Positions 16,017-46,279 of a stretch of 64,000 nt of DNA are shown piece after piece. The notes beneath the pieces were generated by a model. It was not told the DNA's origin, made no database searches, and saw only the letters and a list, made by a program, of their open reading frames with translations. Source of the stretch: Schmidtea polychroa (taxonomy: Eukaryota). How positions within the stretch are numbered: the first letter of the stretch is position 1; every line of letters begins with the position of its first letter. The stretch spans positions 46,066,001 through 46,130,000 of the forward strand of contig CM097885.1 in assembly GCA_044892525.1 (NCBI GenBank), read 5' to 3'. A program made the position numbers and the translations under genes.

Positions 16017-16017
16017 A

Positions 16018-17918: not shown

Positions 17919-17928
17919 AGAAGGGGAG

Positions 17929-21574: not shown

Positions 21575-22118
21575 ATGTAACTTATGTTGGGGTTACACCT
21601 CGGCTGACCACTCTACCATGTTGACGGGTCTAAGGGTTGATTGTCCATCTCGAATAAAAGGTGCCACCGATTTGTCAACCTGGAGTGAAACCCCACATAA
21701 CTTTCTTCCAACATAGTGCCCGTGAATCACTTCACGTTGGTACTGCACTATGCAGGCGAGACGCCAGCAAGCAGGTGAGCTTCTGCCTTAAAACTACTCC
21801 TTGCTGAGGCCTCGACTTCCCATTCACGACTGCCGATAGAAGGGCTTACGTCCATTTCCTTACACAACCGCTTATCGGGATTCGCTGAATGCAAATTGGG
21901 AATTTCTCACTAGATCTTGCGGGTTCTCTACTCGACCCACTTAATTAAAGTCTAATTATTCATGAACGAAGACGTGTAAGACAACAAGATTTATTAATTT
22001 CAATGTTATGACACAAGGATTCAGCTGTACCCTTTACTAACGTTTGTCGAAAGAAGAGAAAACATCATAATCAACATAGATCGGATCCTTGTTCCTCATC
22101 CTGACCGCCACTGGGATT

Positions 22119-22907
22119 TTATTGTTTCTCCCATTCAGTGTCGGCGAATAATTCGTCGAGGTTAAAAAACTCGGAAGCGTTCTCTTCCCACATTACGCCA
22201 GCGGCTGATATGATTCGTGCCGAGGGTCCCGTTGTTAGGTCGATGGACACGTGAGAGTTGCCACCGCTGGTTGAATCCTCTATGGATGGGATGTTTGGCT
22301 TTGTAGTGGCGCACTCGCGCTGTCTCTTCTTGCGCTCTGCACGAGAGAGTTGTTTGCGCTTGGGTTTGCTTGAAGAGGCCACTTGCAGAAGGGTGACTGA
22401 TACGGATGGACTAGCAGTGGGGGGCTTACTGGTACCCGTGATGACAACATCTGGTCGCTTGGGGGACAATTCGGTTTCGACGCAGTCTCGGCACGGTCTC
22501 TTGAACGGTGGAGTTGGATTCGAGGAAAGGTTGTGATGAGGCGGAAAGATGTCATCGGCCTCTCGGATGGGAATCTGCACGATTTTTCGGGTTGTAGCCG
22601 CCTGCACGTAAACCTTATGCAGTGCCTCGGATTGTTCTCTGATTAGACTTCTTTGGGCACGGCTCTCAGATATTAGCGCGTCCCGGCAATGCTCGCTACG
22701 ATCGAGCTTCTTTTGGATCTCTTTCATCCGAGCGGGACTAAACCATGTCCCTTCCAGCTCGTCTATCTTCCTCTTGTAACGTCCAATCTGAGTTTGTAGG
22801 TCCTTTATCACCGTATTTTTATCCGCGCACGAGAAGCACGGCCGTAATGCTGATTTAGTGGTTGGTAGCATGCTTGCTATAAATAATACTAATGAAATGG
22901 AGAACAT
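22119..22907 (-). CDS. LTR-encoded 262-aa protein of unknown function (3' LTR copy)
   Basis: Open frame with CxxC, coiled coil, basic NLS-like KPKRKQLSRAERKKRQR and an acidic-aromatic C-terminus; AATAAA downstream at 21990-21995. Confidence 0.65.
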   Translation of the reverse strand: MFSISLVLFIASMLPTTKSALRPCFSCADKNTVIKDLQTQIGRYKRKIDELEGTWFSPARMKEIQKKLDRSEHCRDALISESRAQRSLIREQSEALHKVYVQAATTRKIVQIPIREADDIFPPHHNLSSNPTPPFKRPCRDCVETELSPKRPDVVITGTSKPPTASPSVSVTLLQVASSSKPKRKQLSRAERKKRQRECATTKPNIPSIEDSTSGGNSHVSIDLTTGPSARIISAAGVMWEENASEFFNLDELFADTEWEKQ

Positions 22908-24324
22908 ACGATTTTAGAATAAATTAGATACGACCCGCGTCCATTCGTGGATACTTGACCGTCGAAAAGAAGGAAAACTTATTCTACAATCCGGTTTTAC
23001 TACGGATCTTAGTTGTTAAAACAGTTTATTTAACCAAATGCCATCGGTTTGACGCATGTTATTAACTTTGACTATCTATTGATCTAACTGTATGCATGAG
23101 GGACGTAATAATTGATAGGGTGTAAATATAATATTGGTGAAACAATATAATAATGCTTTAGTAGAGGGACATTATAGTATGCGACCAAACCTTGCTATAT
23201 GTTATCTATTTTAATTTATTAAAAACAAATTACTATCGCTCTCAACATATTTTTGATTCGAAATTGGTTATTGGAAGTGCACTTTTAATTCGGTAGTGAA
23301 TGTGATTATCCATGTTGTCTACCATCGGTCTGAAAATATGTGATGAGTTTACATCAGCCATTACTTTAACACCCTCATGGAAAATCCCATCGGTCATAAC
23401 ATATCCAAATTTACGGATACTGCTGTCGACTGGTTGATTACATTATCGACCTATTGTGAATGGCACGTGTCGCGACTATCATGTATGCTAGTCTGATATT
23501 CTGTGCTCTCACCACATGGATTCGTGTATGGCTACTATCTTATCTCACTCACTTGGTGTATGCCATTTTCACGGTGATTTCATCGATCCTGCTGTCATAT
23601 GATTTTTTCTACACAGTGATTTATTTGAATTATGATTTACGCTACAGTCAGTTCTCATCGCGGAATTTTGCCCTTATCAACTTGTGTGAATGATCACCAT
23701 CGTTTGGAAATTTATTGGATCTTTTCAGTGATCGTCGAGGGAATAATTCTACCAAATACTGAAGCTTATTACTACTCTCGTCATTCTACTCGGATTTTCC
23801 TATTCAGATGTAATGCCGTCTCAATGAAACCTGCCCTTAGCCATTCGAAATTTTCTCTCAGGTTAAATAATTTGGATATATACAGTGATGCCCTGGCTCT
23901 TATTGTAGAAATAAATGTTATTAATTAAATTTGATGATATTTTACCTGTTTATAATTTTTGAAATAACTAAGTCTATAAAAACTTTCTGATTATAATATT
24001 AGAGAGGTTTTCGTAGAATCTCGCATTTTTCAGTTTCGAGTTAGTTAAAGTTTTTAGGATACTTTCGTAACCTGACATACAATCTGGACAGGCTAGATGA
24101 CATTGGGTCTATGATAACGGAATTTCATACGAAATTAGTTCTACTGAGTCCGGCAAATAGACGTTGTCGCAATTAACTTGATGAAACCATGTTTCCAGAT
24201 GAAGCGTACTATGAGATGTCGTTATTTTTGACGAAGTTCACTAAATCGTTGTCTGGATCTCATTTTTCAATAGGGGTAAGATTTACGAAAACGACTTGAC
24301 GAAAGAAAAAGGAATGCGACGCCC

Positions 24325-24594
24325 TCAGTCACTGTGTAAATCCTTGAAAATCCCTTCATTCGTACGACTATCTCTGTGAAAATCATTGTCTGCCAGCGAT
24401 TCTTTTAACCATGACCCCTTGTGATCATTTAGTCGCATCTTCAGCGATAGGACCCGTGAAGAAGCCTTCACATTTCGGCCCAATCTAGCTGCGTGATTGA
24501 AATACTCCATGTCCACCGGCTGAGCTCCCGAAGGCACCTCATACCATGACATGGAGTATCTCAACTCCACGTTACTCGTTAAATGAAAATTCAT
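24325..24594 (-). CDS. Small LTR ORF, 89 aa (copy at 50424-50693)
   Basis: A diverged nucleotide homolog exists at ~52096-52245; coding status uncertain. Confidence 0.35.
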   Translation of the reverse strand: MNFHLTSNVELRYSMSWYEVPSGAQPVDMEYFNHAARLGRNVKASSRVLSLKMRLNDHKGSWLKESLADNDFHRDSRTNEGIFKDLHSD

Positions 24595-25666
24595 AAAATC
24601 TTTAATTCAAATAAAATACGGACATCTGGATAAAAATATTTTATTAATTCTGAAATACTTAAATAATACAAATTACATCAATACGTTAAAGTTATTAAAA
24701 TGAAGAATCAAATGAAGAGAGTTAACCAAAATGTTTAATCGTTAATATTTACCATTACTATTAGCTTTACAAATACTTAAATAAATCTATAAACAAATGA
24801 AATACCCCTTACTATTGTTTAGGCTGAGTCAAAATTCAATATTGTTCGTTCCAAATAGTTTGAATGGTGGTCCGTTGGATGTCGATTATTGTGACGAATG
24901 GTATTTCGGTCTCTGAACTGGTTTTGAATAGTTGTGGAGTTTTCTGAATGACGGTTGCTTGGCTAGTAGTGTCGATCCTATGAAATGCTCGGGGTTAACA
25001 GTAACAGTAAACATTTTTCTTACCTATGAAATGCTCGGGGTTAACAGTAAATTTAATGTTTTTGGTAGTTGTATATATATCAAATTCTTATTTGTGCGGA
25101 CCAATCAGAGTTGAGTACCGCTTATTTCTATTAATTTAATATAATTTTCTTGTTTTTAGGTTGTTTTTTCCTTATTTTCTTTATTTTTAATATGTTTTTC
25201 TATTTATTTCCTTAATTTCCTTATTATTTCTTGAATTCCTCTTTATTTATTTGTCAACTTGTTCTATTTTAATCTTTTCTTAATTTTATTTTTTGTTTTA
25301 ATTCTTATGTCTTACTTATTATTTTCCTTATATCTTATTCTATTTTATTTCTGATTTTATTTATTTTATTATTATTTTTCTTAATGTTCTACTTCCCTAC
25401 TTTCCTATTTTTCAACGATTAAATTTTCGACTCAGCCCAACAAATCACTCGGGGACCCATCAAAATTGCGTCCCGCAATTGCATAATTAACTTAATTCAT
25501 TCATTCAAAAAAAATATAACACGAACACGAAAATTATACAACAATGATAAAATTTTTATTGTAAGATCTAGGTCAAAGCAAGATCAAGCAAGTATCACTT
25601 AAGGTGATAGTTTGTACATACAATAAAAGTTTCCACATATAATAACACAAATGTTTGAATTAGAGT

Positions 25667-26335
25667 TTATGAATTGTTAACCATTGATGCTTCTGCTGGC
25701 GGCTGTTGGTTGGTTTGGGTATTGATGTTGAGATAGGTCTGACTATTAGATTTCGGCTGGATTGGTTGATTACTCGGGGTTCGAGGTTGGAATGGGGTTG
25801 GGTTAAGATTTGTCAGGGGCACTTCTTGAGGATTTTGGTTCGAGGTTACTCTTATTGATGTCGAGACTCTACATCTATTTCGAATTTCGTAAATTTTCAT
25901 GAATATTGGTAGACATAGGAGGAGGGTTTCTGCGATCACCACATATATGAGATAATGGGTGTCATTGATCTCGGGAGGTGTTTTTGGCTTTTCTACAAGA
26001 TTTTCAAAATCCTCTTGTTGCATTTGTTGTTCCAACTGGTCGATCTGTTGGCTTTGTTCGAAGATTTGTTTGTTTATCATTTTACAAATGGGATTCCTTT
26101 TACACATTGTTTGGATGTTGTTGATGTGTGATCGGGTTGATTGAATGGTTTGGATGATATGGGTTTTTACGGTCATCGGGTATGTGCATTGACTGGATTC
26201 TTGTTTAGGTTCTTGATTTTGATTTCGGTAATCTCGTACGATTTTCGGTTGGGCGTCTATTTGTTTGCTCTCCATCAGAATCCTCAATACCATCATTGTT
26301 ATCATCATCTCGCCTCGCATGATACTATTATACAT
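25667..26335 (-). CDS. Accessory ORF: probable single-pass membrane protein with coiled coil
   Basis: Hydrophobic N-terminus, CxxxxxC, TM segment YLIYVVIAETLLLCLPIFM, and a P/Q/N-rich tail. Confidence 0.65.
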   Translation of the reverse strand: MYNSIMRGEMMITMMVLRILMESKQIDAQPKIVRDYRNQNQEPKQESSQCTYPMTVKTHIIQTIQSTRSHINNIQTMCKRNPICKMINKQIFEQSQQIDQLEQQMQQEDFENLVEKPKTPPEINDTHYLIYVVIAETLLLCLPIFMKIYEIRNRCRVSTSIRVTSNQNPQEVPLTNLNPTPFQPRTPSNQPIQPKSNSQTYLNINTQTNQQPPAEASMVNNS

Positions 26336-26375
26336 TCATTATGTTTATTTACAATTGGTTTTAATGACCCTTAAT

Positions 26376-27128
26376 TTAATGGTTCTGATTTGGATTATTT
26401 TCGCCGATTCTCATCAAGGTGGACTCTGCTTTAATTACCCTGTGTCTTAACTCGGGCAGCATTTCCAATTGTCGGTCTTTTTCACGGGCTTCTCTCTTTA
26501 GATGTCTAATTTCTTTTTCCAAGCGTCTAATTTCTTCCCTTTTCTTTTCAAGGTTTCTTTTTAGCTCGATTTGTAGGAGATCTTGTTCGTTTTCTTGCAG
26601 GTAATTTTGTTGTTGATGTTTTCTTTCTATTTCTCTATATTTGCGGACCCACTTCCTCATTTCTTTACTTTCCCGTTGGTTTTCTTCTAGTTGTCGTTTT
26701 AATTTATTTATAGCTGTTTGGCGCTCCTTCGCCTCAGTTTTCCAGTAGTCTTGGATTACCTCCTTTGCTTTGAAGCTTGCCCTCTCTTTCCATAGTTCTT
26801 CCGCTATCTTTTCCCAGTTTTTCCCTCGCTTCCTTTGTTCGTGTAGCCATTCATTTTCCTCTTCCGTTTCTCTTTTTATTTCCCCCAACGCTTCGCACTC
26901 TTTCTTTAACACCTTTATCATTTTCCGGTCCTCTAGGTATTTGTTTATTAATCTCCCGTTTTCGTATTTCTCTTCCCGTAACTCGGCCTTTAGCGTTTGT
27001 GTTTCTGTTGTTTCTGCCTCAATCTCTCCCTCTTCTACGTCGCTCATAATTTCTATCATTTCCTCGATTTTCATATCTATAATATGTACAGTTAATGGTG
27101 CGCTATAGTGCGACTTATACGTATACAT
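26376..27128 (-). CDS. Accessory coiled-coil protein (likely start M19 at 27074)
   Basis: E/K/R-rich heptad-like sequence with the same codon bias as the other element ORFs. Confidence 0.7.
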   Translation of the reverse strand: MYTYKSHYSAPLTVHIIDMKIEEMIEIMSDVEEGEIEAETTETQTLKAELREEKYENGRLINKYLEDRKMIKVLKKECEALGEIKRETEEENEWLHEQRKRGKNWEKIAEELWKERASFKAKEVIQDYWKTEAKERQTAINKLKRQLEENQRESKEMRKWVRKYREIERKHQQQNYLQENEQDLLQIELKRNLEKKREEIRRLEKEIRHLKREAREKDRQLEMLPELRHRVIKAESTLMRIGENNPNQNH

Positions 27129-27246
27129 TGATATAAAATTTAATAGTTTGGGTTACAGTCCCTTGAATACTTTTACAATACTTTAATTTTTTTTGTTTGG
27201 GATATACGTCCCGGTTTTTAGTTTTTTTTCATCTTTTCATCCACCC

Positions 27247-28356
27247 TCATACGAAGGTTTCCTCCTGGCCTACATAACCTTCATCACTATCGACCGCGGA
27301 ATGTAACTGTATCGCAATAGGGTCGTATGGTAGGTAATATTGGGGAATTTGAGCTCTCAATTCACTAACTTCGTCTCTTAGAGCTCGAGTGATATTCAAT
27401 TCCTCGTCGAGCAGATAGGTGAGATACCTTGTCTCTTCATCTTGCGCCTCTATCTGTTTGTCTAGGGCCTTGATTTTCTCGTCGCCCTTCCATTTTTCAA
27501 TTTCTATTTCTAAGTTTTTAATATTTTCGGTGTACATTTTCCTTTCGTTTTCTAATTTTCTGTTTTTTCCCGCTAGGACCATGTTTCTTTGTTCCAGCGA
27601 TCCTTGTAATCCATTAAGGTCTCTTTTCATCTCTTCTACCTGATTTACTAATTCCACAACCCGTCCCGCTTGTTGGGTTATCATCTCTTCCATTGCGGCA
27701 TTCTCGTGCTCTCTTATGTCGCACTTCATTGCCAAATGTCGCTCAAACTCCATAGCCTTTGTTTGCCAGGTTTGGCTTCGGGCGGCGACCTTTCTCAACC
27801 TTTTCAATTCTTCCTTTATTATTAAATTCTCTTCCCATTTACCTTGTTCGCTTTCATATCCGAGTCTCATGGGCAATTCTTTCATCTCTTTTTTCATTTC
27901 TCTGTTTTGTCTTTTCCATTTCCTCGCTTCTGCCACTAAGTGCATCATTTTCCTGTCTTCTATTTGTTTTTCCGCTTCGCGCTTGGTGTTCTCATCGGTA
28001 AGTCTCTTTCTCGCTTCCTGCACTAGCTGCTTTAAGTAGTGGCTGTGTGCTTCTTGGCGGGTATTTTCTAGTGACGCCCATTTTGATGCTCTTTTGCATG
28101 CTTCTGCTTCCGCTCTTAAGTTGTGTATTAACCATTGGTATTGACTATTCTCATCTTCTCTAGTTTCTTCGATGTGATTTCGGGTGAGATTAGTTAGTTG
28201 GAACATTACTTTGTTCCATTTTTTGTTATGTTCTCGGGGAATTTGTGTCTTGTTGACATTGGTTGGGGCTATCGCAGTTTCGGTTATTTTCTCTTGTGTC
28301 ATCTCTAAATCATAGACATCGATTAATCTTTTTATTATGAAAAAGAATTTATTCAT
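27247..28356 (-). CDS. Accessory coiled-coil protein (likely start M19 at 28302)
   Basis: 369-codon open frame, predominantly helical and charged. Confidence 0.7.
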   Translation of the reverse strand: MNKFFFIIKRLIDVYDLEMTQEKITETAIAPTNVNKTQIPREHNKKWNKVMFQLTNLTRNHIEETREDENSQYQWLIHNLRAEAEACKRASKWASLENTRQEAHSHYLKQLVQEARKRLTDENTKREAEKQIEDRKMMHLVAEARKWKRQNREMKKEMKELPMRLGYESEQGKWEENLIIKEELKRLRKVAARSQTWQTKAMEFERHLAMKCDIREHENAAMEEMITQQAGRVVELVNQVEEMKRDLNGLQGSLEQRNMVLAGKNRKLENERKMYTENIKNLEIEIEKWKGDEKIKALDKQIEAQDEETRYLTYLLDEELNITRALRDEVSELRAQIPQYYLPYDPIAIQLHSAVDSDEGYVGQEETFV

Positions 28357-28494
28357 TATTTACTGTTTCTTGGGAAATTTTCGCATCATTTTTGGGTTTT
28401 CGTATTTAGGGTTTTCATACTATTATTATATAATATTTTATTGGTTATATACACCGATATATACAGATTATTATATACAACATTATTCGATTGG

Positions 28495-29883
28495 TTACTC
28501 CGTTCTACCCTTCTCCTCTTTCCTCACGGTCATCTTGATATATATGGTATCATTTCTCGCCATATCTTCTACTCTTTGTTGTGAGATGAACGTAGGTGCT
28601 CCTGTTGCTGATCCTTCTTCGTTGAGGGGCCTCTGGTAAGCTATTTGATTCCCCGTTGTTTTGAAGCTTTGCTCATGTATACTTTGGTTGTTCATCAGAG
28701 TAATATCGATTTTTGCCTGGAACGGCCATTCTAATATTTCGTCGTATTCTCCTTTACATAACAGAAAGAAAATCGAAAAGTGCGTGTTTAATCCGGTTCC
28801 GTCCCCGTTGGGATATATCTTCATTTTCATTTTGTACCCATTTTTCCAAGAGTGGAATGTAGGACTTGTTATTCTTGTCTCTTCTCCGGTTTTTGCTTTT
28901 CGTATTCTTTCTTTTACTCCCGTTATTTTCCATATGTAGGGTGCTGTTGGGGTTATCTCATTTAGATTTATTTCCCGTATTTTCTGATGTAGCTCCTTGG
29001 CCTGATTATTACTGATTTCTGTTCGGTTTATTTGCATCTTTAGGTTTGCTCGGGCTTCTTCGAACGCTTTCCTTTCTTCTAGTAGTTCTTTGACTAACAC
29101 TTTCAACGATGTTATCTCTATCTCCATTTGTTTTACTTTCTCTTCGCTTTCTTGTAACGCAGTCGACCACATTTCTGCGTGAGTTGAAGCATTTTCTACT
29201 AAATGATGTGGTAACTCACCTCGGTGTAGTAATTTCTGACAACCCCATCTACCTAGTACACATGTCATTCTTTTCTTTTCGCATTCCCTTAGATGCTGTG
29301 CCACCTTCATTATTTCCCCTTGGTTACATCCGTTTGGGCATTCCCCACTGAACTCCGCACATACTCTCTCCTCTTGGACATTGTGATGTTTGAGGGTGAG
29401 ATTTATCCACGTATCTATTTCTCCACAGTGTTCACATCTTTCTAATCTCTCTTCACACTGCTTTTGATGTTCTTTTTCTTCGCTTGCTCGAATGGTTTTA
29501 TGGCATCTTTCACACTGGCCAATTCTGTACATACATTCTCCCATATGTTGTACTACCTTCCATATTACTCCTTTCCATTCGCATGGGGCATTTTTGCATC
29601 CCAGGTTGGTGTTTAACACGTCTTTCACTGCGGCTTTATCCTCGTTAGTGTCTTCTAAACTCGATATTAGTGTCTCTTTACACACCGGGCACCTCTGTGG
29701 TCTATTCTTTATTGCTTCACTGATACATTCTTTACATACTCTGCATCCACATTGCGTTTGGTGAGGTTCCTTTAACAACTTTTCACATATTCCGCACATA
29801 ACATGTTTGTGTATTCTGATCGTTGTAGATTTTCGGACTTGCTCGACAATCTCTCTGAACTCTTCTCTTTGTCGTTTATCCAT
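28495..29883 (-). CDS. Intronless TRAF-family protein (RING - TRAF zinc fingers - coiled coil - MATH/TRAF-C)
   Basis: CGICEKLLKEPHQTQCGCRVCKEC...CPVC; CKNAPCEWKG...HMGEC; YIWKITGV...SPTFHSWKNGYKMKMKIYPNGDGTGLNTHFSIFFLLCKGEYDEILEWPF. Confidence 0.93.
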   Translation of the reverse strand: MDKRQREEFREIVEQVRKSTTIRIHKHVMCGICEKLLKEPHQTQCGCRVCKECISEAIKNRPQRCPVCKETLISSLEDTNEDKAAVKDVLNTNLGCKNAPCEWKGVIWKVVQHMGECMYRIGQCERCHKTIRASEEKEHQKQCEERLERCEHCGEIDTWINLTLKHHNVQEERVCAEFSGECPNGCNQGEIMKVAQHLRECEKKRMTCVLGRWGCQKLLHRGELPHHLVENASTHAEMWSTALQESEEKVKQMEIEITSLKVLVKELLEERKAFEEARANLKMQINRTEISNNQAKELHQKIREINLNEITPTAPYIWKITGVKERIRKAKTGEETRITSPTFHSWKNGYKMKMKIYPNGDGTGLNTHFSIFFLLCKGEYDEILEWPFQAKIDITLMNNQSIHEQSFKTTGNQIAYQRPLNEEGSATGAPTFISQQRVEDMARNDTIYIKMTVRKEEKGRTE

Positions 29884-29968
29884 TCTATAATTATATGTAC
29901 AAATAGTTCTTATCGATACAGGTTCGATATTTTATTTACAATTATTTACATTTTAAGCTAGGTTTGGT

Positions 29969-30328
29969 TTAGGGTTCGGAAGAGTCGGCTTCGTGCCCGC
30001 TCTCCTCTCTATTCATTAGCCATTCCGACCAGTCTTCTATTTCTGTCTGTTCTGCTTCCTCCCTCATTCGGTCTATTTCAATTTCCTGTCGACGGCTATA
30101 TTGGGTTATCCTCTCTATCTCTCTTTGCATTTGTTCGATTTTTAACCTCTGGTCTTCAATTATCTTCAAATAACTAAATCCTCTGTTCATACTCTCGATC
30201 AGGTTTCTGTGCATCGTCAGTCCTTGTTCTTGCAAATTGGACACTAATTGTGCTAATACGGCACATTGTTGCTTCCATAATTCTTCAGTTACTGTATTGT
30301 GGTTCATTTCGTTATTTCCTTGATCCAT
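29969..30328 (-). CDS. Small accessory coiled-coil protein (119 aa)
   Basis: Open frame with heptad pattern, flanked by the same intergenic signals as its neighbours. Confidence 0.6.
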   Translation of the reverse strand: MDQGNNEMNHNTVTEELWKQQCAVLAQLVSNLQEQGLTMHRNLIESMNRGFSYLKIIEDQRLKIEQMQREIERITQYSRRQEIEIDRMREEAEQTEIEDWSEWLMNREESGHEADSSEP

Positions 30329-30488
30329 TCCTAATTTATATACACTTTTCAGCTCTTATGTAAATTTAATTTTATTTTATGATTCCCGTTATTGTATAAT
30401 ATTGATACCGCGCTTATATAAAGATATAGTACTGTTATATACATAAGATATACTTACTTTTTACAATTATATACAGTCATATTCCTTT

Positions 30489-33400
30489 CTATATACGTGA
30501 GTTTGGAGGGCGCTGAGCGTTCCAGGCCTCCACCCACTGTTCTTGTTTGATATTACTTGGTCGTTTCACTCGATGTTGGAAATTTCTGATTCGAGTCATC
30601 TCTAGTTCTCCGCGATGTCGTTTATCCTTAATTATTTTTATTGTTCCCCCCGTTATGATTAGGAATGCCCCTGTTATTATTATCCCACTGATCCACATCA
30701 TCTGCTTCACGCTTATACTCTCTGGTTTTTCCTGGTTTGTTAATGTTGATATTGCTTCTGTACTTTTCTCGTTCCCTCTTTTGCCGTTTCCTTTCATCCT
30801 TTCCCGTATTCTTGCTATTTCCTCGTTCATACCCTCCTTTGCCATCTTCTGTATTTTTTCCATCTCTTCTTCCGAAACATAGTTGTCCTGAGCTTCCTCA
30901 CCAGTTTTCTTGTGCTTTCCTCCTTCGTTCTTTTCGTCGTGGTTCTTTCTTTTCTTTCCTCTTTTCCCCGGGTATCGTCGGCATTCTCTTTTTGATTCAT
31001 TCCTCCAGATACAAACCGTGTATTCTTTCGGCGGCTGCTGCTGCGTCACATATTGATGGCATCTCTCACCTGGTCCTAATCTTGAAATACAGACTTTGTG
31101 CTCTTTTCTAGGTTGGATCTGCGTTATTACTACTTCACCACCTTTTCCTAGGTGTACCTCTTTTCCTTTGACGTTCGTTATTCTCTTCCCGTCTCGATTT
31201 CGGTATGCTTCTTGTATTCTTACTTCTGTTATTGGTTCTGTGTCCTCATTTATCAGTACTAGTTTCTGATACGCTCTAGACATGCATCTTCCTAGTATGC
31301 ACCTTTCCTTTAAGTCCCATTCTTCCTTTAAATCCCACTGCTGCTCTTGTGCTTGCTTTCTCTTTTCTTGTTTTAGTTCATCCTCTTTGCTATCTTGATT
31401 CTCCGCTTCTTTGGTTTCTTTTATCGTTCTCGTCCCTCCCTGAGCTGTTACTAACTCTATCATGGTAAGCATAATTATCATTAATATCATATTTGTCTCT
31501 ATTTCTTTGTTAGTGAAAGGTAGGCATACCCTCTGTTTTCCATTATTCGATTTTTCCTCCTCTTTGGTCTTGGTTCTCGGGCTGTTTCCCTCTCTTTTCG
31601 TATCCGAATCCTTGTTTTCTGGTTTACCCTCCTCCGGTTCTCTTTTCTCTTTATCCTCCTTGCGGTCTTTTCCGTTATTGTCATCGTGTTTATCTCCCTC
31701 GCTGTCATTTAAAATGTCGTCCTCGACATTTATATCGTTCAATAATCTGCGATATGCTGTTAGCACTCTGTTTCTTGCTAATTTTGCTTCGAATTCAAAC
31801 TCTTTTCTACCCGTTGCAGCATGTCTCTTTCTATTCCATTCTTTAACTAACTCTCTCAATTGCATACGACGATGTTTCCCAATTCGTTGTTGCTCGTTCT
31901 GATTTTGCGTGAATTTTAGGTCTTCTCTATTTAATACTATTAAAATAATTTTAGGCGTCCCCCCCTTAGTTAGGGTATTCTTTACCATCGCATTTTCTCC
32001 GTTTTCGTAGAATTCGTTTACATTTATCGCATATTTATTATTTTGTGGTACTCTCCAGGTTAATAATAATTTCATTGCTTCTAGATTTTTCCGTACCGTA
32101 TTCCATTGAAACTGAGATGTGTTTTTGCACATATTTTCAACTTCTTCTTTTGTCGCATTTTTGCAAATAAATCTGATCATTTCTAAGTTTGGCTGTATGG
32201 TTGCCCAGTCCAAGGTGGAATTTCCTTCATTGGACCTTTCGTCTAGTTTCGATCCTGATTGATGTAGGATGTGGAGTGTTTTTGGGTGTATTTTCGTTAT
32301 AGCTGCATACATCATGGCGGTTTCACCTTGTTCATTTTTCGTGTTGGTTTCCTCGCCCATCTCTCCAAGGATTCTCACGATCGTTATTGCTCTATTTTCT
32401 TTCGCCGCTAGTATTGCTTGTTGTAGGGGTGTTCTGGAATCCTTCGTTACCATCGTAAATGCTCGAGGCAAGAAGGTTTTGATTTTCCCGATATCTAAAT
32501 CCGTGGTTTGATCTCTTGCGTATGTGTGTACGGCTTTTATTATTTTTGACAATATTATTTCGTCTGGCAGCTCTAGCATTTCCTCAAAGAACACTTCTTT
32601 TGCTTTGCGTATTATTGCCTCTTGATCTATACTCATTGATTTGGTTTCGATGACGTTGTTTGTGACCGTTTGGTTCGTTGTTGACTTTGATTCCCTGGAT
32701 TTCTCATACCTTATTTTCGTTTTCTTTCCGTTTGGATTATTGATTCGTTCCTCTGCTGTAAGTATTTGGATAATATCCATGTAATTCTCGCGGATGTTAT
32801 TCATCGTGTCCATCATATATAATACACTTACTGTTTCCCAATATTTATGTCGTACTTGGTTAGTAAATTGGAATAGTGATTTTTCGAATGTGTCGATTCG
32901 CTTTTTTGTTAACTGTTCGTCTTTGTGATTTGTGAATTTTATCCCTCGTTCCAGTAATTGATTCGGGATTTCGAATAAATGATGTCCTTTCATAGCTTCT
33001 CTCATCAGCGTGTTCTCTCCTCTCGTGAACGCTTCGTTTACGTTGATCATATAATCGTTTCGAATTGGATTTCTCCATGTAATTAATATTCCGGTAATTG
33101 TCGTCAGTTTTTCTTTGATCGCTGTTAGCAATCCATCATACATGTTTCCGACTTCCCGATTGTCCTCATATGATAGTAGTTCCATCAATGACGTGAACGC
33201 CTCGGTACTTCTCCCTCTGATAGCATGATGTAGAGCGTTTTTCCGCTCGTGGTCTTGTGTAGTTATTTTCGATCCGGTATCGAGTAATGCGGTTATGATG
33301 TCTTTTGTTTTGCCTCTGTTTGCGGCTATCATTAATGGTGTGTAACCTTGGTTGTTTGTTTGTTCTGTTGATCGCTTGCAGTCGTGAAATGCTTCTATTG

Positions 33401-36400
33401 TTTCTAGTATTTGCTCGTTGTTACCTACTTTCATGAGTTTGTGTAATGGTGTGTCTCCGTAATGATCTGTTATTGTAAATAATATTGGCCATTGGCTTTT
33501 GACTACTCGCAATAATGGGTGTGTCCTTTCTCTATTTGCATAGTTCTCGATCATCGTCAATAATCCTCCTAATATTTCGAAATCTAATCGATCTTTTGCC
33601 CATCCAGGTATTTTAATTTTTACCTCCTTTACAATCTTTTCCGCTTCTGATGGTTGGATACCTAATCGTCCAGTGATCGGTTCTGCGAGTTGCTGCATCA
33701 TGTTCATTCGGTAGGTTTGCGAACGTGTGGTTAATGTACGGCCTTCTGGTTGACTAGTGGCTGTTTTTGGGATTGATTTGCATCGTGCCACGTTTACGTA
33801 TATTGGTCTGGTAAAGGGGTTATTTACCAATTTCACTCTTACATTAGTTTCGCCTACGAATAAGATCTCATATGGTCCTTTTCCGTTGCGTTGTAACTTT
33901 TTTGTGGTTCCTGGAATTAATTCCGGGGTTTCTATCATTACCCAATCACCTGTTTGGAACGTATGTTGCTTCACGTTTTTCTTTCGATCGTGTAAATCTT
34001 TATAACTTTCCTGGTAGAACTTGATATTTAATCCCGCAGTTTCCCAAATTTCTTGCATTCTTTCCTTGAATTTCGTAACATAATCATCGATCTCCATATA
34101 CTGCGATATCGGTGGTTGGTATTCCAGGTCCATTGGCATGTTACATTCTCTTCCGTACATTAATTTGAATGGGCTCATTTTCGTTGATGCGTGAATCGAC
34201 ATTCTGTACGCCATAAGACATAGGTTTATATATTCGTCCCAATCTCGTTGGTGACGGTCAACGTAGTTTGATAACATTTGTATAAGTGTTCCATTAAATC
34301 TTTCCGTCATCCCATTGGTTTGAGGGTGGTATGGAGATGTTCTTAGTTTTGCTATTTTGAAGTAATTTGTTACTTCGCTCATTATCTCACTCATAAAATT
34401 AGTTCCCTGATCGGTTAAGATTTGTTTTGGTGTTCCATATCGGCAACATATCTCTTCTACCAAAATTTTTGCGATTGTTTTAGCTTTTTGGTCTGGCATC
34501 GCGAATGCTTCTGGGAATTTCGTAAGAAAGTCTGTGATCACTAGAATGTAAACGTTTCCTTTATCTGACTCTGGTAGTGGACCAACTACGTCCATGGATA
34601 TCATTGTCATTGGTTCTATTGGTACTGGCATTGGTGTTAAAGGTGCTTTCCATTTCGATCCAGTATTCTTCCTGGTTGCACAAGTTAGACAATTTTTTAC
34701 CCATTCGGTTACATCTTCAGTTAACGTAGGCCAAAAATATTTCTGTTTCATTCTTGCTAACGTCTTTTTCGATGACATATGTCCTCCCAATCTCCCATCG
34801 TGATATTGCGTTAGTAACTCTTTTCGTCGGTTTTCCGGTATACACATTAATCGTTTTTCCCCATCCATTATCAGCAACCAATCTTTCTCTATAATATATC
34901 GGTGTCGGTGTTTATCCATATGTTCTTTTAATTTTTGGTCTTTCGCATATACCTCTGTCTTTCCGGTTTTTACATAATCGATAATTTGTTTTAATTCCGC
35001 GTCCTCTTGTTGGTCCTTTCGTAATTGACAGAAATCCAAATCTTCCGCTACTATTAAGCATATGCGTTGCATTTCTGAATCCACCAAATCTGGGAAAATA
35101 AATCTTGACATACAATCGGCGTTGGCATTTGCTCTTCCCGCTTTGAATTTTATAAATGGGGAGTATTCTTGCAATTGCATGGCCCATCGCATCAGTCTAC
35201 TGGACGCTTCTTTATGTTGCCCTAACCACACTAATGGTTGATGATCCGTGGTTATGCATATCTCATGTCCCCATAGTAAATATCGGAAGTGTTTGATAGC
35301 TTGTATTATAGCCAATGCTTCTCGTTCTGTTACCGAATAGTTCTTTTCGTGCTTTTTGAATGTTCGACTGTAATACCCGATTACTCTCTCTTTTCCCTCA
35401 TCGTCTAATTGTCCCAGAATCGCGCCTGCCGCGTACCCGCTTGCATCCGTTGCCAATAGAAATGGCTTCTTAAAATCTGGGTGTACGAGGATAGGTGCTT
35501 CGATTAGTTTGTCTCTCAGCGTTTCGAACGCCTGTTGTTGTTCTTTTTCCCAAATGAACGAAATATCCTTCTTTACTAATTCCTGGATTGGTTTTGCAAT
35601 TCCTGCATAATTTTTGATAAATTTGCGATAGTATCCGCATAATCCTAGAAATTCCTGAACTTGGGTGACAGTTTTCGGTGCTGGACATGTTTTTATTTTC
35701 TCAATGTTTCTTGGATCTGGCTCCTTTCCTTTAGCTGACACTATGTGTCCTAAAAACGTGACTTTTTCCTTTGCCCAATCGCATTTTGATGGTTTGAGTT
35801 TGAGTTTCCACTGTCTTAATCTAATAAATACGTTTCGGATATCTTCCAGATGTTGTTCAAATGTCGCTGAATAGATTAGTAAATCATCAATATATACCAT
35901 ACATTGTTTGATTCCATGGGTGACAAAGTTCATACACCGTTGAAATGATGCTGGTGCGTTGGTCAGTCCAAATGGCATTTTCCTGAATTGATATAGATCT
36001 CGTCCCAACGTGAAAGCTGTTTTCTCTTTGTCCTCATCTTTGACTTTAATCTGCCAGTATCCACTTTTTAGATCTAAAGAAGTAAAATATGCTGCCCCTT
36101 GCAACATCAATAACATCTCATTGATGTCCGGCAATGGGTAGGTATCTCTCTTGGTCACTGCGTTTAACTTCCGATAATCGATACAGAATCGTTGGGTGCC
36201 ATCTTTCTTTTTCACCATGACCACTGGGAATTGCCAGGGTGAGCAACTTGGTTCGATTACTTTTGCGTCTAGCATCTTTTGTACTTCTGTTTCGGCTATT
36301 TCTTTCTGCATTTCTGCTAGCTTGTATGGTCTCAATGCAATTGGGGTTTCGTCTATGAGTGGTATTGCATGTAAGGTAACATCACATGTACCCAAGTCTA

Positions 36401-39400
36401 AATCTGAGATGGCGAATATATCTTTATATTCTACCAACAATCGGTGCAATTTTTTCTTTTCGTCATTCGTCAACAACATACTATCTATTGTCCATAATTC
36501 ATCATCTTTGATCATCTCGTTGGTCACTTTCGGTAATTCTATGTCCATCATTGGGGTCAATCTTCCCAATTTTTCGTTCTCATAAATGATTTTGTCTTCC
36601 TCTTCGAAATTCGTGATGTTGAGCGGTATCACTCCTTCTTGGTTTATTGTGATTATTTCTCTTGCGAGTGGTAATTCTCGTCGCTTTTCAAATGACTTGC
36701 TTGGTTCAAAGATAACTTCTCCTTCCATACCCGTATCCACTTTTATCTGACAAATCATCTGTGATTTTGCTGGTACTATTATTTTTTCTGGACATCTGAT
36801 GACTGCATTCATTTTGCATATTCTACCGGTTTTGTCTTTTAAACACATGGTTGTTAAGTCAATTACGACTTCTTTTAACAATTCTGGCATCAAATCCGTT
36901 CCGATTATGCATGGTACGCTAAGTTTTGGTATTACTGCCAAATACGTTTCAATTTCGTTGTCCTGGTATCTCAATGTAGTCCACCATCTTCCGACCACGT
37001 CCACTGTTTCTTTACTACATGCTATGATGTGAATTGTTGTTGATTCGATATCCTTCCAGTGTTTACTGGGGATTTGATTAATCGCTATCGCTGATACATT
37101 AGCTCCGGTGTCTATCATAGCATTGGTTTCTTTACCATTGATTTGAATCATAACTGTTACTGCTGGACCTCCAGGTAAACTCATCGCTGCTATTGTTCTT
37201 ACGTCATCTGCTTGATCTACACTTTTGGTACGTCGTGTTGGCATATAATGCATACCGGGTTGACTCGGTAATTGCGGATACATATTTTGTGTCATGGTCA
37301 AAGCTGTTTGTGGTCCCACGATATCCGGTGGTATATAGCTTCCATTGGCGATCCAGGTGTTTGTCTTTTCCTTTTCCCAATATGGTGCCGTTTCCATTGG
37401 TTTTTCGTTTGGGTTTCTGTTTGGATAAAGACATTTATCGTTCCCGTTATCATCGTCGTCACTATCGCTGTTAGATGATTGGCTTCTAAATCGGTCCAAG
37501 AATTTTGGCTTATTCTTTTTCAATTGTCGTCTTGTTGCTTCATCGTACATTACTTTCCGGAATCGTCTGCCTACTTCTTCGTCGGTTCCTTTAATCTTTG
37601 TTAATATTTTTATCAATCGCTTTATCCGATGAATGTCTTTTGAGTGGCCATGTAATACCATGGTCTTAGCTAAAAATGGTAAGAAGCCTACTATCATTTT
37701 CCAATTAACTTTCTTTTCCCGCTTGTATATATCGAAACAAGCTAACATTTGTGTTAGTATTACTCTGACTATCTGAATTATGAGTATGATCCCTAATATC
37801 CCGGCCATCATTTGTCCAAAAACTAAGAATCTTCCCCACATTGCTTTCATCATGTTTGACGTAGCTTGTTGAAAATGGTCTGGCGATAATAGCAGCTCGT
37901 AATTCGGGCCTGATTGATAATTTGTGCCCCCAGTTATTGTAACCATATTAGACAAAATGGATTCTCGTCTGGCTGGGAAGAGTACGTTAAGTCGTGCTGT
38001 TTCTAGATCTTCTGGGGAATACATACCACCGTTTGACACGTCTATAGGTTTGAAATCCAGCTCTGTGGCGAGTTCTATTAATCCAAATTTCTTGGGCTCC
38101 TCGGATATGGTTTTTCCCGGTAACATCATCCATTTCCCATCGGGCCTTTCATATAAAGGTCCGTATGCATTAGAACAGTTAAAGAGATTTGGGTAGAAAC
38201 CCACTGGATTCATAATTCTAGTGACTGGTTGGACGAATCGATTTTGTCCTTTATAACGGATTTCTAATTCATTTGCACATCTCTTTTCGGGTAGTATGGA
38301 TTTTTCTGGCATTCGTGCATACGTCTTGGTACACTGGTATGTGTACATCACTTCTCCTACCATTCTACCAAAGTGTCCATCTGGTAATGGGAGGGATGGC
38401 ATCGTGTTATCTGGGTGCGTTATCGCAATAGCTAGCTTTGTTTTCAATATTTCTTTATTCAATGAACAATCGTTTTGTATCAGATCGTAATATACTTTTT
38501 GCAAGGTCGTTTGTCCACGATGAAATAGAAAATCCATTTTATTATTTGCATATAAGTATAGTTTTACGTCCTCCGTTGCTATCTTTCCCACTGCTCTATC
38601 GATTATTTGTCTCGACATATAGATACCTGCGTAATTGGTTTTATATACTATACTGTCACATTTGGTGGTTTCTTTCTCTTTGATAAACCTCATACCTAGA
38701 TCTGGATCGTCTGTGATTAATGCTGTTGGTGTCTTCTGCGTTGAAAGTCTCTTTTCTCTGGGAGATGGTGGCATTGGTTTTCCATTTCGCATCCTCACTC
38801 TGTCGTTTCCATCCTCGTCGTTCTCGTTCTCATATATTTCTCCTTTTACTTCATTGAACAAAGCACTTTTTAACAGTTGGAGTCGGCATTTTTGGGTATT
38901 AGCTTCATAGATTATAGTTGATACTCCTGTCCTGCATACGTTTTCTGTAGCTTTACACGTTGGGTTGGTCTTCATTTGGTAATTATTTGCGTCAAATTGC
39001 GCTTCGTATTCTTTTAATTCGACCGTGTAAGACTCGATCACTACAACTCCCGATATTACCTCGCCTCGGATCGTATACGTACCTCCGTTACATGACCCAT
39101 CTGATGATTTTACTTTTCCGGATACGTAAACACTTTCGGTTTTAATCATTCCAGTTTGTCCGTGAATTGTCACTCCGTTATGCATTTTTAGCGCTCCGGT
39201 TCTAAATAGCTCTTTACAATCCTCTCGTTGTATTGATACGATTTCTTTATCCAGACCGGGTAGTATAAGAGTCGAATACGAATATTGTCCACAGTAATAT
39301 GCGAGTACCTTTTTTGATACTACGCATTCCCTTGCTTGCGTTCTGATGAAATCTGATTCTTGATATACATGGTAAGTAACTTTTGTTCTTACGATGTCCA

Positions 39401-41345: not shown

Positions 41346-41366
41346 GAAGGTTCCTTTCCGGATTTC

Positions 41367-44342
41367 TCATTCCTTACTTTCTGCATTCCACACTCTTTCC
41401 CATGGGGTTCGTCTGCAAGATCTGGTATTTAATTTCGTGATTTTTCCTTGTAGCTCTTTTTCTTTTAACCATTGTTGGTGGATTTCAATTATTTCTGTAG
41501 ATTTTCGATATAACGTTTTCATCCGGTCTCGTATTTCTTTTTGATATGTTACATCTCTTGTTCGGAATTCATCCATTGGTACTATCCTGATTATCTGATG
41601 ATTGTCCCACATACCCATTTCGCTTAACGAGGTGTCGTCCTCCGCTCGTAATATTATCTTATCGTACATCATGACTACATCATCCACCATACCATCACTA
41701 CTTTCGCTACGTACCTTTTCCGTTATCTCTTGGTTTATTTTTGATACCAAGTCATCCACTGTACTCTGATTGCTCATTTTTATTCGTCGTTTTTCTTCGT
41801 TCGGTAACCATATGGTTATTTCCAACCTCTGTGGCTGGGTTTCTTTTAACCTTCCATATTTGTGGATCAAATTTATGGTTCTCCAATCACTCATTCGGAG
41901 CATTTCTGTATCTCGCAACCGGCTCATTAGTTCGTACATGACTGGGGCTCGTCTGGTGATGAGTAAATCCCAGTTGTCTTCTACTTGTTCTTGAATTTGT
42001 TTGATCAGCTTATCCAGGTTTCGTCTCAGAGTACATTGTTTTATTTGTTCTAATTTCAATTTGATATTAAAATCATATTCTGCCTTGGCATCTTTAGCCC
42101 AATCGTAAAGGTTGGCTGGTTGTTTTTCTTTATGCAACTTCAGTATTTGCGTTTCTCCTGGCCATATTAGTGCATCTACTAAGTGCATATCTGGTTTGAT
42201 CTGTTCTCCTTGGTATTGATACAGATATTCTTTCTTTCTCGAACTTCCCAAATGTTCTCGTATCCAATCGAAAAGTTCGTCGGTGACTGTATTTTTTATC
42301 CACATTCTTTCAAGTCCTCTACTCGTTCCAATTTTTATTACATACCGCGTGGTATCGGCCTGCTTCATTTTTTCCATATAATTTTTTATAATTGATTTTT
42401 CCTCGTTTGGTATTAAATCTTTCTCGTTTCTTTCCAATTTCATCACTTTTTGCACGAATCGCCTGAATGGTATTACGTCAATGAACTCTTGGTTCCTCAC
42501 TACTACTGGGAGTATTTCGGCTACCTGTTTTATCGCTTCCTCCCTTGCTTTTCTCAACTTTATTTCGATATCTTCGTCTTCACTTTCACTGGTTATCTCG
42601 TTTCCGCTTTCTTCCTCTTTGATTTCCCCTTTTGGAGGTTCGCTTATTTCATTCGGCTGTAGTATTTCTCCACCCAAACTACTTACATAATCTTCTTCTT
42701 CGTCTGACGATGCTACATCTTTTGTCCTTTTCATCATATTGATTTGCAAGTTTCTCATCCTTGGTACTTTCTTTAGTTTCTTTCTTTCGAATATTGTTGT
42801 TTCTTCTGGTTCTGATTCTTGTAGCATTTGGTGGTTTAGTTGACTGGTTTGTTCCTTGCTCTTGTTATTTTCATCTTCTGTCTCGGTTTTCGCTTTATTA
42901 TGTTCTTTTTCGATTTTATCCTTTATCTTTTTCCAGAATATTTTCTGAGTTCTCTGGTTTCCTTTTAAAATCGTGGTTGAATTCTCTGTTTTCATTTCCG
43001 TTGTTATTTCTTTTACCTTTTCTGGTTCAGTCATGGGTACTACCCTTGGGCTTTTCCCGTAATTGTAGCAATACTGGCTCTTCATGTCTTTTACTAACCT
43101 CATCATATTTATTCGCAATGGTTGTTCTTGTCGTTGTTGGTTGCGTTCTTGTTTTATCCTCTCTTCCTCGGCCTGTAGCCTTTGCCATTCTTGTACATGT
43201 TGATGCACTTCATAATTGTTGAGATTTTCGGTACTCCTCATCATACGTATATTCTGGGTTTGTTGTGGTGCTGATTCTTGTCTTGGTCTCATCATTTGTT
43301 GCATCATCTGTTTCATCTGCGAAATTTCCTGCATAACGTTCATTTGTTTTCCTTCGTTAGGGTTACTTTGTCGTTGCGGATTCGCTATATAATTATTATT
43401 TCGCTGTGGTGGTCGTTGTTGTTGGCCCCTTTCTCGGCAATCTCTGGAGATGTGACCTGGCTGACCACAGTTAAAACAGCCTCGCAATTGGCATACATTT
43501 TCGGTATGTCCACGCCGTCCGCAACGATTACAATTTGAATTTCTATAACAATCTCTGTCCCAGTGTCCTGGTTTACCGCATGTTCGGCACTGCTTGTTAT
43601 CGTTCATATTTCGCCGATTATTGAAATTGTTCTCATTATTCGGGTTGTTACGATTACCATTATTCCCGTTTGATCGTCCTTGTGGTGGTTTGAAAATTTG
43701 GTGCGCTCCTGGTATAAATTGATTCATTTTCGGTTCTTGATTGTTGTTATCTCCGTTATCCGCTTTCGCTATTGCTGTCGCTATCCTTCCCTCCTCTTGC
43801 ATAATATTCATTTGAGCTGGAAGGTGGAGCTCGCATCTTGTAGCCCAATCTATGGCTTCCTCTAATGTTTTGCACATTTGACAACCTACTGAGGCTCTTA
43901 CTTCTTCTCGGCGTAATCCCTCTATGAAATAACCGATCAGATTTTCTTCGGGTAATTTTCCATTCATTGCTTTCTTTGCTAATCTCCGCAATTCACTGGC
44001 ATATAATGTTATCGATTCGTTTGCTCTTTGTTTCCTATTTGCTAGTTCGCCCAACGCCTGGTTGATTGGCTTACTGGCTCCGAAGGTTTTCTTCAGGAAT
44101 GTTTTAATATCTTCCCACTTTTCTAATTTCGTGTCTCTCTCTTTAGCTTCTAAATATACCTCTAATGCACTATCGCACAAAAACAACGGCATCCTTTTAC
44201 TAATTGCTTCGGGTGTCCATCCACACACAGTGATATAAACTTCAAAATTAGTTATGAACGTTGCTAGCTTGTTTGCATTTCCGTTGAACGGTTCTCCTCT
44301 GAACTTCTCTTTATACTCGTCGGTTTTTACGACATTCGTCAT
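41367..44342 (-). CDS. gag: Gag (capsid-like region plus three CCHC knuckles) with a ~600-aa C-terminal extension
   Basis: FNGNANKLATFITNFE...; CRTCGKPGHWDRDC, CNRCGRRGHTENVC, CFNCGQPGHISRDC. Confidence 0.92.
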   Translation of the reverse strand: MTNVVKTDEYKEKFRGEPFNGNANKLATFITNFEVYITVCGWTPEAISKRMPLFLCDSALEVYLEAKERDTKLEKWEDIKTFLKKTFGASKPINQALGELANRKQRANESITLYASELRRLAKKAMNGKLPEENLIGYFIEGLRREEVRASVGCQMCKTLEEAIDWATRCELHLPAQMNIMQEEGRIATAIAKADNGDNNNQEPKMNQFIPGAHQIFKPPQGRSNGNNGNRNNPNNENNFNNRRNMNDNKQCRTCGKPGHWDRDCYRNSNCNRCGRRGHTENVCQLRGCFNCGQPGHISRDCRERGQQQRPPQRNNNYIANPQRQSNPNEGKQMNVMQEISQMKQMMQQMMRPRQESAPQQTQNIRMMRSTENLNNYEVHQHVQEWQRLQAEEERIKQERNQQRQEQPLRINMMRLVKDMKSQYCYNYGKSPRVVPMTEPEKVKEITTEMKTENSTTILKGNQRTQKIFWKKIKDKIEKEHNKAKTETEDENNKSKEQTSQLNHQMLQESEPEETTIFERKKLKKVPRMRNLQINMMKRTKDVASSDEEEDYVSSLGGEILQPNEISEPPKGEIKEEESGNEITSESEDEDIEIKLRKAREEAIKQVAEILPVVVRNQEFIDVIPFRRFVQKVMKLERNEKDLIPNEEKSIIKNYMEKMKQADTTRYVIKIGTSRGLERMWIKNTVTDELFDWIREHLGSSRKKEYLYQYQGEQIKPDMHLVDALIWPGETQILKLHKEKQPANLYDWAKDAKAEYDFNIKLKLEQIKQCTLRRNLDKLIKQIQEQVEDNWDLLITRRAPVMYELMSRLRDTEMLRMSDWRTINLIHKYGRLKETQPQRLEITIWLPNEEKRRIKMSNQSTVDDLVSKINQEITEKVRSESSDGMVDDVVMMYDKIILRAEDDTSLSEMGMWDNHQIIRIVPMDEFRTRDVTYQKEIRDRMKTLYRKSTEIIEIHQQWLKEKELQGKITKLNTRSCRRTPWERVWNAESKE

Positions 44343-45650: not shown

Positions 45651-46279
45651 TACGACTGGCTGGCACTATTCAACAGCTCAATCTTCTTCCTTCTGATCGG
45701 TTAGACTATTCAACAACTCGATCTTACGACTGGCTGGCACTATTCAACAGCTCAATCTTCCTCCTTCCTGATCGGTTGGACTTTTCACAACTCGACCTTA
45801 CGACTGGCTGGCACTATTCAACAGCTCAATCTTCCTCCTTCCTGATCGGTTGGACTTTTCACAACCCGACCTTACGACTGGCTGGCACTATTCAACAGCT
45901 CAATCTTCTTCCTTCTGATCGGTTGGACTATTCAACAACTCGATCTTACGACTGGCTGGCACTATTCAACAGCTCAATCTTCCTCCTTCCTGATCGGTTG
46001 GACTTTTCACAACTCGACCTTACGACTGGCTGGCACTATTCAACAGCTCAATCTTCTTCCTTCTGATCGGTTGGACTATTCAACAACTCGATCTTACGAC
46101 TGGCTGGCACTATTCAACAGCTCAATCTTCTTCCTTCTGATCGGTTGGACTATTCAACAACTCGATCTTACGACTGGCTGGCACTATTCAACAGCTCAAT
46201 CTTCCTCCTTCCTGATCGGTTGGACTTTTCACAACTCGACCTTACGACTGGCTGGCACTATTCAACAGCTCAATCTTCT
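45651..46279. repeat. Tandem array, 8.5 x 74 bp, two unit variants
   Basis: TACGACTGGCTGGC recurs at 45651, 45725, 45799, 45873, 45947, 46021, 46095, 46169 and 46243. Confidence 0.95.

Follow-up and report, generated by a model that had tools for sequence, protein, structure and literature searches.

How does a mobile element of 30 kb that carries TRAF-, RING- and IAP-like genes express its eight open reading frames (ORFs)? The question is raised by a 64,000-nt stretch of Schmidtea polychroa DNA (GenBank assembly GCA_044892525.1, contig CM097885.1, positions 46,066,001 to 46,130,000; hereafter the window, in whose coordinates positions are given), which contains a complete giant Ty3/gypsy long terminal repeat (LTR) element of the Burro type (21585..51541, 29,957 bp, with a TAAG target-site duplication) on the minus strand, where all features of the element described below also lie. 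In the sense direction it consists of an LTR with its own ORF, a RING ORF, a 74-nt tandem array, gag, an env-like fusion protein, protease, reverse transcriptase, RNase H and integrase (PR-RT-RH-IN), ankyrin repeats, a 3′ cassette of ORFs A, TRAF, C, D and E, and the second LTR. The element belongs to the Burro/GYPSM1 class, and both the class and its accessory ORFs were already known; what we add are signals in this known giant retroelement that are real and conserved and that point to RNA processing. We lean, with moderate conviction, towards a reading in which one transcript from the LTR promoter carries a short leader that would be cis-spliced to many acceptors, in the style of the adenovirus late unit.

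The sequence-only reading of this locus had described the 3′ part as an operon-like cassette with an AG just before each ATG, and all six AG-gap-ATG strings that it quoted are present on the minus strand. The five spacers of the cassette (30329..30488, 29884..29968, 28303..28494, 27075..27246 and 26321..26375, numbered 1 to 5) end in TAG at 30333-30331, 29887-29885, 28307-28305, 27079-27077 and 26327-26325, respectively. A YAG within 5 nt of the ATG is thus found in all five, compared with 0.51 in dinucleotide shuffles (0/5000 equal). As controls, internal Met codons have one in 35 of 179 cases, and the remaining ATGs of the spacers in 2 of 34. In the enrichment check against shuffled sequence that had been proposed, the acceptor words and the TGTAHATA words discussed below both stand far above the dinucleotide-shuffle expectation.

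We compared the window element with further copies and families. Its own family, W, has at least 119 copies in the genome that match one 20-mer; the 47 copies compared are the 27 best DNA matches and 20 from the 119-match list, nine of which were selected as a diverged subfamily. At 25-36% protein identity to W, family D has six 3′ ORFs, one of them an IAP; family B, with an env identity of 36%, has a single 3′ ORF; family C is represented by one degraded copy; and family F shows 73% DNA identity to W. In family D, a YAG lies within 5 nt in five of six spacers and the sixth has AAG, so that W and D together give 10/11 (1.55 expected; 0/5000 shuffles reach 10); the proteins of these ORFs are no more than 25-32% alike between the two families, and W and D spacers are not alignable by blastn. 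Among the 47 W copies, the sole acceptor changes are TAG to CAG (TRAF in one copy, D in four, E in one) and a one-base shift that keeps the AG (ORF A, 13 copies), and all six sites of family D are retained in 8/8 copies (92-99.6% identity). A prediction recorded beforehand for family F was borne out, with an AG 0-4 nt upstream of the ATG in 5/5 ORFs; before ORF C the adjacent site is only AAG, and the nearest YAG is 6 nt away. Gap lengths are altered in F, suggesting that the frame of the leader is irrelevant. The single 3′ ORF of family B has TTTCAG 3 nt upstream of its ATG, and the RING ORF has TAG at gap 0 in D and gap 2 in F; the RING ORFs, the LTR ORFs and the family B 3′ ORF thus match the pattern of the cassette ORFs. 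A looser TGT 10-18 nt upstream of the ATG (9/11 spacers; 1/5000 shuffles) may belong to the acceptor as well, and the acceptors predicted by reading frames in host TRAF-type loci are equally A/T-rich. From these features we regard the AGs before the cassette ORFs, with high confidence, as putative splice acceptors.

The ATGs behind these sites, which had been taken as likely starts, are the true ones, since the ORFs themselves are under selection and their upstream in-frame extensions are not. Coding selection was found in ORF A (29969..30328, 119 aa, 32% identity to ORF A of family D), the TRAF-like ORF (28495..29883, 462 aa, RING and MATH domains), ORF C (27247..28302, 351 aa, by eye probably a coiled coil) and ORF D (26376..27074, 232 aa, probably a coiled coil), with p values from 8e-7 to 5e-28, and it is borderline in the fast-evolving ORF E (25667..26320, 217 aa; p 0.056). 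Upstream in-frame ATGs at 28356 and 27128 were rejected as starts, the extensions showing 3 synonymous and 8 nonsynonymous changes and 0 and 11, respectively. ORF E has, by eye, a hydrophobic N-terminus and one further hydrophobic segment and is probably a membrane protein; it evolves near-neutrally among copies (90 synonymous, 222 nonsynonymous), unlike the other four ORFs, and diversifying selection is possible.

What could be joined to such acceptors is suggested by the 5′ LTR (47684..51541, 3,858 bp, a single mismatch to the 3,858-bp 3′ LTR at 21585..25442). A CCAAT-type box (ATTGG) and TATATATA at 51171..51204 form its probable core promoter, and four family F copies carry the same pair although the F LTRs do not align there. 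The candidate common splice donor, TAG/GTAAGA, lies 56 nt past the TATA start (51117..51125), and its AGGTAAG at 51122 is the only one on the sense strand of the 5′ LTR and the interior. Of 27 W copies, 24 retain the donor, one (a diverged copy) has it as a variant and two are without it. Family F has AG/GTAA 55-57 nt past the TATA in 4/4 copies, with LTRs otherwise unalignable with those of W, and family D has A/GTAAG 77-87 nt past TATATATA in 6/8 copies, while none of the 142 TATA-like sites in flanking DNA is followed by AGGTAA at +50 to +64. The candidate donor would close an AUG-free leader exon with a predicted length of ~25-30 nt, and the leaders of W and F contain no ATG. Behind it lies a possible mini-intron of 46 nt (GT..AG, 51077..51122) within a short tandem duplication, and a YAG is found 45-53 nt past the donor in W, F and 2/6 D copies.

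The duplication that contains the donor differs in sequence per LTR variant (51077-51150 in the window; loci L199-L202; L028; L014, L018), and two copies have a single duplication unit and no donor, possibly through intron loss or slippage. A U5 block with GTAAG and a conserved stretch is common to W (47870-47950, minus strand) and F (L206:2440-2520), and is partly present in D without GTAAG; it is a candidate for a second donor or a packaging structure.

The start of gag fits a leader of this kind. A strong acceptor-like site (T-rich, TAG; 44945..44961) lies above gag, its TAG being present in 27/27 copies and similar sites in D and F. An AUG-free zone begins ~30 nt above this site in the window (27-51 nt across W, D and F), and the ATG-free stretch above gag measures 631 nt in W (8.5 ATGs expected), 523 nt in D (9.3) and 772 nt in B (17.5). 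Within it, an ATG-less N-terminal extension of Gag (44343..44654) is under coding selection, the ~100 codons of the gag frame above the first ATG showing 35 synonymous and 14 nonsynonymous changes against 28% synonymous expected (28/30 copies). The most likely start is the ACG at 44654, because the family F frame opens three codons upstream of this conserved ACG, which is in good context, and because Ile stands at the corresponding position in family D and in metaclust relatives. The flatworm spliced leader (SL) ends in AUG (PMC12582326), so that a weak ACG start would suit an AUG-free leader better. A Gag start at an SL AUG, placed at the in-frame TAG of W, D and B, was rejected, as families C and F have TAA and the F frame opens only three codons before the ACG. 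An 86-codon frame past the gag acceptor is non-coding (indel-broken in most copies; 18 synonymous, 35 nonsynonymous). A YNLRS motif upstream of the first Met, with synonymous differences, is common to families B and C, in the extension seen in the window at 44343-44687. Six metaclust Gag relatives, in which Gag is fused to RING or other segments, have the look of chimeras from gene models or assembly, and we left them out of the evidence for splicing.

From these features we infer splicing itself, the pairing of the donor with the acceptors, the use of poly(A) signals, binding by a PUF protein and the ACG start. A single long transcript from the LTR promoter would give rise to many single-gene mRNAs. 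Its short leader exon, which closes at the donor 56 nt past the TATA, would be cis-spliced to one of about eight alternative acceptors, one each preceding the LTR ORF, the RING ORF, gag-env-pol and the five cassette ORFs (A, TRAF, C, D and E). Whichever ORF lies behind the chosen acceptor would then have the first AUG, with Gag made from the ACG after its AUG-free region. A weak AATAAA in the spacers probably terminates part of the mRNAs, Pumilio-type elements directly after the internal stop codons probably allow a host PUF protein to limit mRNA stability or translation, and unspliced read-through RNA would serve as the genome. Cis-splicing from an LTR leader, one of the mechanisms offered by the sequence-only reading, is thus supported by the conserved TATA-donor pair, the AUG-free gag leader and the probable ACG start, while the SL alternative is left standing beside it.

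The spacers contain a further signal, which the same reading had taken for a single shared motif, TGTA(C)ATA..TAG. The motif is real, but its placement is different, as eight of 11 exact copies lie just after the upstream stop and only three just before the AG. UGUAHAUA occurs at 30475, 30443 and 30344 in spacer 1, at 29950, 29940 and 29901 in spacer 2 and at 28479, 28465 and 28453 in spacer 3; spacer 4 has no post-stop motif and carries UGUACAUA at 27090, and spacer 5 has UGUAAAUA at 26353. The 11 occurrences fall in 664 nt of spacer (16.6 per kb), compared with 0 in 18.3 kb of ORFs and 0.29 per kb in flanking DNA, and the total is 18 against 1.25 expected. The first TGTAHATA lies 14-23 nt past the stop in 9/11 W and D spacers (0/5000 shuffles) and 14, 20, 16 and 19 nt past it in four of five F spacers. 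Shared variants among W copies hit 5/88 motif sites and 99/550 other spacer sites (p 0.001), and the fifth base of the motif is free to vary, as the consensus permits. The motif was not found after the E, RING and LTR ORFs of W and D (0/7), with a near match after E in F, nor 12-25 nt past the stop in 30 host TRAF-type loci, many of which are close paralogues.

The consensus of the Pumilio response element is UGUANAUA (PMC5758885), and TGTAHATA is, by its sequence, its 3′ untranslated region (UTR) position and its free fifth base, this consensus. A role of UGUA as a general CFIm poly(A) element is disfavoured because planarian poly(A) sites are reported to be without UGUA (PMC5068929); moreover, 18 of ~40 TGTA words in the spacers continue into the complete 8-mer. 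A gene with PUF repeats is present in the genome. The terminating ribosome covers about 15 nt past the stop, and the distance of the motif from the stop points to a cytoplasmic role. Planarian pumilio is a stem-cell regulator, to which these sites would tie the elements, and Burro elements are reported to be both abundant and transcriptionally active in the stem cells of planarians (PMC6884822, PMC8532177).

Poly(A)-like signals after each stop had also been described, and this holds only weakly: AATAAA or ATTAAA is found in 5/5 spacers (AATAAA at 30376 in spacer 1, 29936 in spacer 2, 28442, 28353 and 28336 in spacer 3 and 26349 in spacer 5; ATTAAA at 27187 and 27144 in spacer 4), but the AATAAA count of six is compositional (5.18 expected). 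Their position is more telling, with 7/11 spacers having AATAAA within one 13-nt window, 44-56 nt upstream of the ATG (1/5000 shuffles, scan statistic), and four hexamers of the window element are retained in 41-47 of 45-47 W copies. It is plausible that spacer poly(A) signals are functional.

Several observations weigh against cis-splicing from a common leader. Cis introns of 20-25 kb would be needed, and these would have to pass over the gag acceptor, which is much stronger. The acceptors of the cassette are weak, their upstream T content being only in the top 7-20% of all YAGs, and a branch-point-like TRAY is marginal (157/5000 shuffles). On the donor side, the two W copies without a donor, the ATG in 4/6 D leaders and a generic donor matrix, by which three intra-ORF sites outscore the LTR donor, all count in the same direction, and the donor may serve only the mini-intron directly behind it. 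Retrocopies of the junction type were not found by pattern searches that gave 119 matches for the control, a negative that is weak because the spliced RNAs would be without the primer site. In the spacers, the post-stop Pumilio motif is missing from one internal spacer in W and F and from another in D, AATAAA over W and D is not enriched (13 against 11.9 expected), and family F has AATAAA in the 44-56-nt window in only 1/5 spacers (42, 56, 57, none and 23 nt; 42 and 57 being near misses).

These points leave room for an alternative that we consider doubtful, in which the 3′ cassette is an SL-capped operon within a retrovirus-like element: the spacers would be cleaved internally at their poly(A) signals, the downstream unpaired acceptors would take the host SL, Pumilio sites would tune each cistron, and the LTR donor would serve only the mini-intron and the 5′ ORFs. 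The same-strand spacers of 55-192 nt lie within the ~300-nt operon criterion and fit the ~100-nt operon peak in Macrostomum, where an unpaired acceptor is reportedly enough (PMC8629364), and the AATAAA 44-56 nt upstream of the next ATG in 7/11 spacers and the limitation of the Pumilio-type motif to internal spacers would also suit such an operon. SL trans-splicing exists in Schmidtea (PMC10899757), flatworm acceptors are often common to cis- and trans-splicing (PMC12582326), and Cer1 of Caenorhabditis elegans has an SL1-spliced mRNA (PMC3315495). Against an operon stand the conserved cis donor upstream, the failure of the SL-AUG Gag start in family F, and the observation that only 2/5 window sites fit UUNYAG, the consensus of SL acceptors in parasitic flatworms (PMC12582326); among the 119 copies, moreover, none departs from T at the third position before the ORF A junction. 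The SL AUG would be out of frame at 9/14 sites and in frame at 5/14, which is only neutral, being near the in-frame rate of 28% in Schistosoma mansoni (PMC9851317). SL trans-splicing mixed with cis-splicing is also possible. If the operon were true, the element would be exploiting the RNA machinery of the host's stem cells for the expression of TRAF- and IAP-like regulators.

It seems improbable that the cassette is expressed without splicing, whether internal promoters drive its ORFs or ribosomes reinitiate on, or enter within, a polycistronic RNA; TAG-NN-ATG would in that case signal a start site or a stop-start. The post-stop motif occurs only where another ORF follows, which would suit translational coupling, the TGT keeps a similar distance before the ATG, and TGTATATAAA includes a TATA-like word. 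However, a TAG that swaps for CAG or AAG is not required as a stop, and only one of the five ends a spacer upstream ORF, so we rejected it as a stop-start codon. If transcription began at the AG, the 5′ UTR would be only 1-6 nt long; the spacers contain many upstream ATGs, and the sites of the RING ORF, the LTR ORF, gag and family B are of an obvious acceptor type. The internal promoter that the sequence-only reading had seen in TGTA(C)ATA..TAG finds no support, because with a TATA box 10-17 nt before the ATG transcription would begin within the ORF, and the motif is an element of the Pumilio type that goes mainly with stop codons. It would be very surprising if the signals had no present function and were only side effects of A/T-rich spacers or remnants of host mRNA ends once captured. 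The chance-level AATAAA count and the shared ancestry of the families, whose sites are not fully independent, could be read in this way, but YAG and UGUAHAUA are enriched at fixed positions, are under purifying selection within family W and are conserved across unalignable spacers, and the motif is missing from the same place in the 30 host TRAF-type loci.

The remainder of the element is in keeping with its class. The LTR ORF (48218..48978) has a T-rich TAG 5 nt upstream of its second Met (48970, 250 aa), the RING ORF (46854..47344, 161 aa) has an acceptor-like CAG 2 nt upstream of its ATG, and the primer-binding site (47659..47676), presumably of the tRNA-Pro type, is identical in families D and F. 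The 74-nt tandem repeats between the RING ORF and gag (45565-46353) come in two alternating variants. The polyprotein frame, gag-env-PR-RT-RH-IN-ankyrin (30489..44342), contains the env-like domain PF24664 (aa 817-1156) upstream of the protease and is broken here by a stop at 41367-41369, between gag and env, which is private to the window copy (absent in 10/10 alignable copies of 12 fetched); the LTRs of this copy nevertheless differ at one base only. By Pfam, ankyrin, MATH and RING domains are present in family W and BIR in family D only. No dUTPase-like, Ubi/SUMO-like or BCL2-like domain was found by Pfam at E 0.01; PMC6431247 detected these domains by HHpred. ORF A has no Pfam family and no protein relatives at E 0.001 within the length range searched.

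A polypurine tract, expected before the 3′ LTR, was not found there; instead, a ~40-nt motif directly upstream of the LTR is common to W (25443..25482), D (L140:775-816) and F (L199, ~5365-5415). A hairpin at this place was rejected, as folding was no better than in shuffles (z -0.3 and +0.2). The cassette of family D includes a BIR and RING (IAP-like) ORF (L112:4608-5786; at least 149 genome matches), its polyprotein contains a second MATH domain, and its LTR has two ORFs, each with a TAG closely upstream of the ATG (L113:1823-2868), the second being stop-interrupted in both copies examined. A search with AlkB gave no additional element family, and the regions downstream of two family C env matches (L063, L064) hold no cassette. 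Host MATH-domain (TRAF-like) paralogues occur in large clusters (G000 C2, ~105-124 Mb and 1-5 Mb; L084-L107). Elsewhere in the window, a smaller LTR element with 117-bp direct repeats (9494-18045, plus strand) contains BEL/Pao-like and gypsy pieces in nested arrangement, together with a ubiquitin-like segment and a proteasome-like fragment present twice, and duplicated blocks of 94-98% identity with the same two short ORFs (578-4764 and 54910-64000) flank the giant element.

Burro/GYPSM1 elements are giant gypsy-like LTR retrotransposons of planarians, ~30 kb in length (PMC6431247). The window element resembles them in its size, just under the 30 kb reported there, and its many copies, in a Gag with CCHC knuckles and a mononegavirus-like fusion protein placed between gag and protease in the same frame, and in its ankyrin repeats, MATH/TRAF and RING cargo, tandem repeat and accessory ORFs (PMC6431247). 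One gag-env-PR-RT-RH-IN ORF of ~4,600-5,100 aa is characteristic of the class, and the frame in the window fits, barring its private stop. It differs in that TRAF is a 3′ accessory ORF and that BIR is absent from W and present in D. The available text of PMC6431247 does not mention the expression of the accessory ORFs, acceptors, an LTR donor, Pumilio-type motifs or an ATG-less Gag extension. Literature searches returned no account of expression signals for these elements, a point on which the supplements of Grohme 2018 may bear; we supply exact coordinates for the leader, the acceptors, the poly(A) signals, the Pumilio sites and the non-AUG Gag start.

In HIV-1, in foamy viruses and in the spliced env mRNA of Drosophila gypsy, an LTR transcript is spliced from a 5′ donor to weak alternative acceptors, by which each accessory AUG becomes the first. 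Complex retroviruses differ in having a single 3′ LTR poly(A) site and shorter introns and in that Gag needs no spliced mRNA, and we know of no Pumilio arrays in them. The major late unit of adenovirus, with a ~28-kb transcript, an AUG-free leader and five poly(A) families (PMC7851563), is similar, as a model only, in its common AUG-free leader, many alternative acceptors and several poly(A) sites; it differs in belonging to a DNA virus, in its 201-nt leader of three exons and in a transcript that need not persist as the genome, and there is no homology. Cer1, likewise a Ty3/gypsy element, produces a subgenomic spliced mRNA that occurs both with SL1 and without it, but it has one spliced mRNA and no multi-gene cassette (PMC3315495). 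The SL operons of flatworms and nematodes share the short intergenic distances and a poly(A) signal followed by an acceptor beside the ATG, and are made of host genes rather than a mobile element (PMC8629364, PMC12582326). If the cis-splicing reading is correct, the window element would represent an adenovirus-like late unit in an LTR retrotransposon, and if the SL is used instead, an SL-resolved operon in a mobile element.

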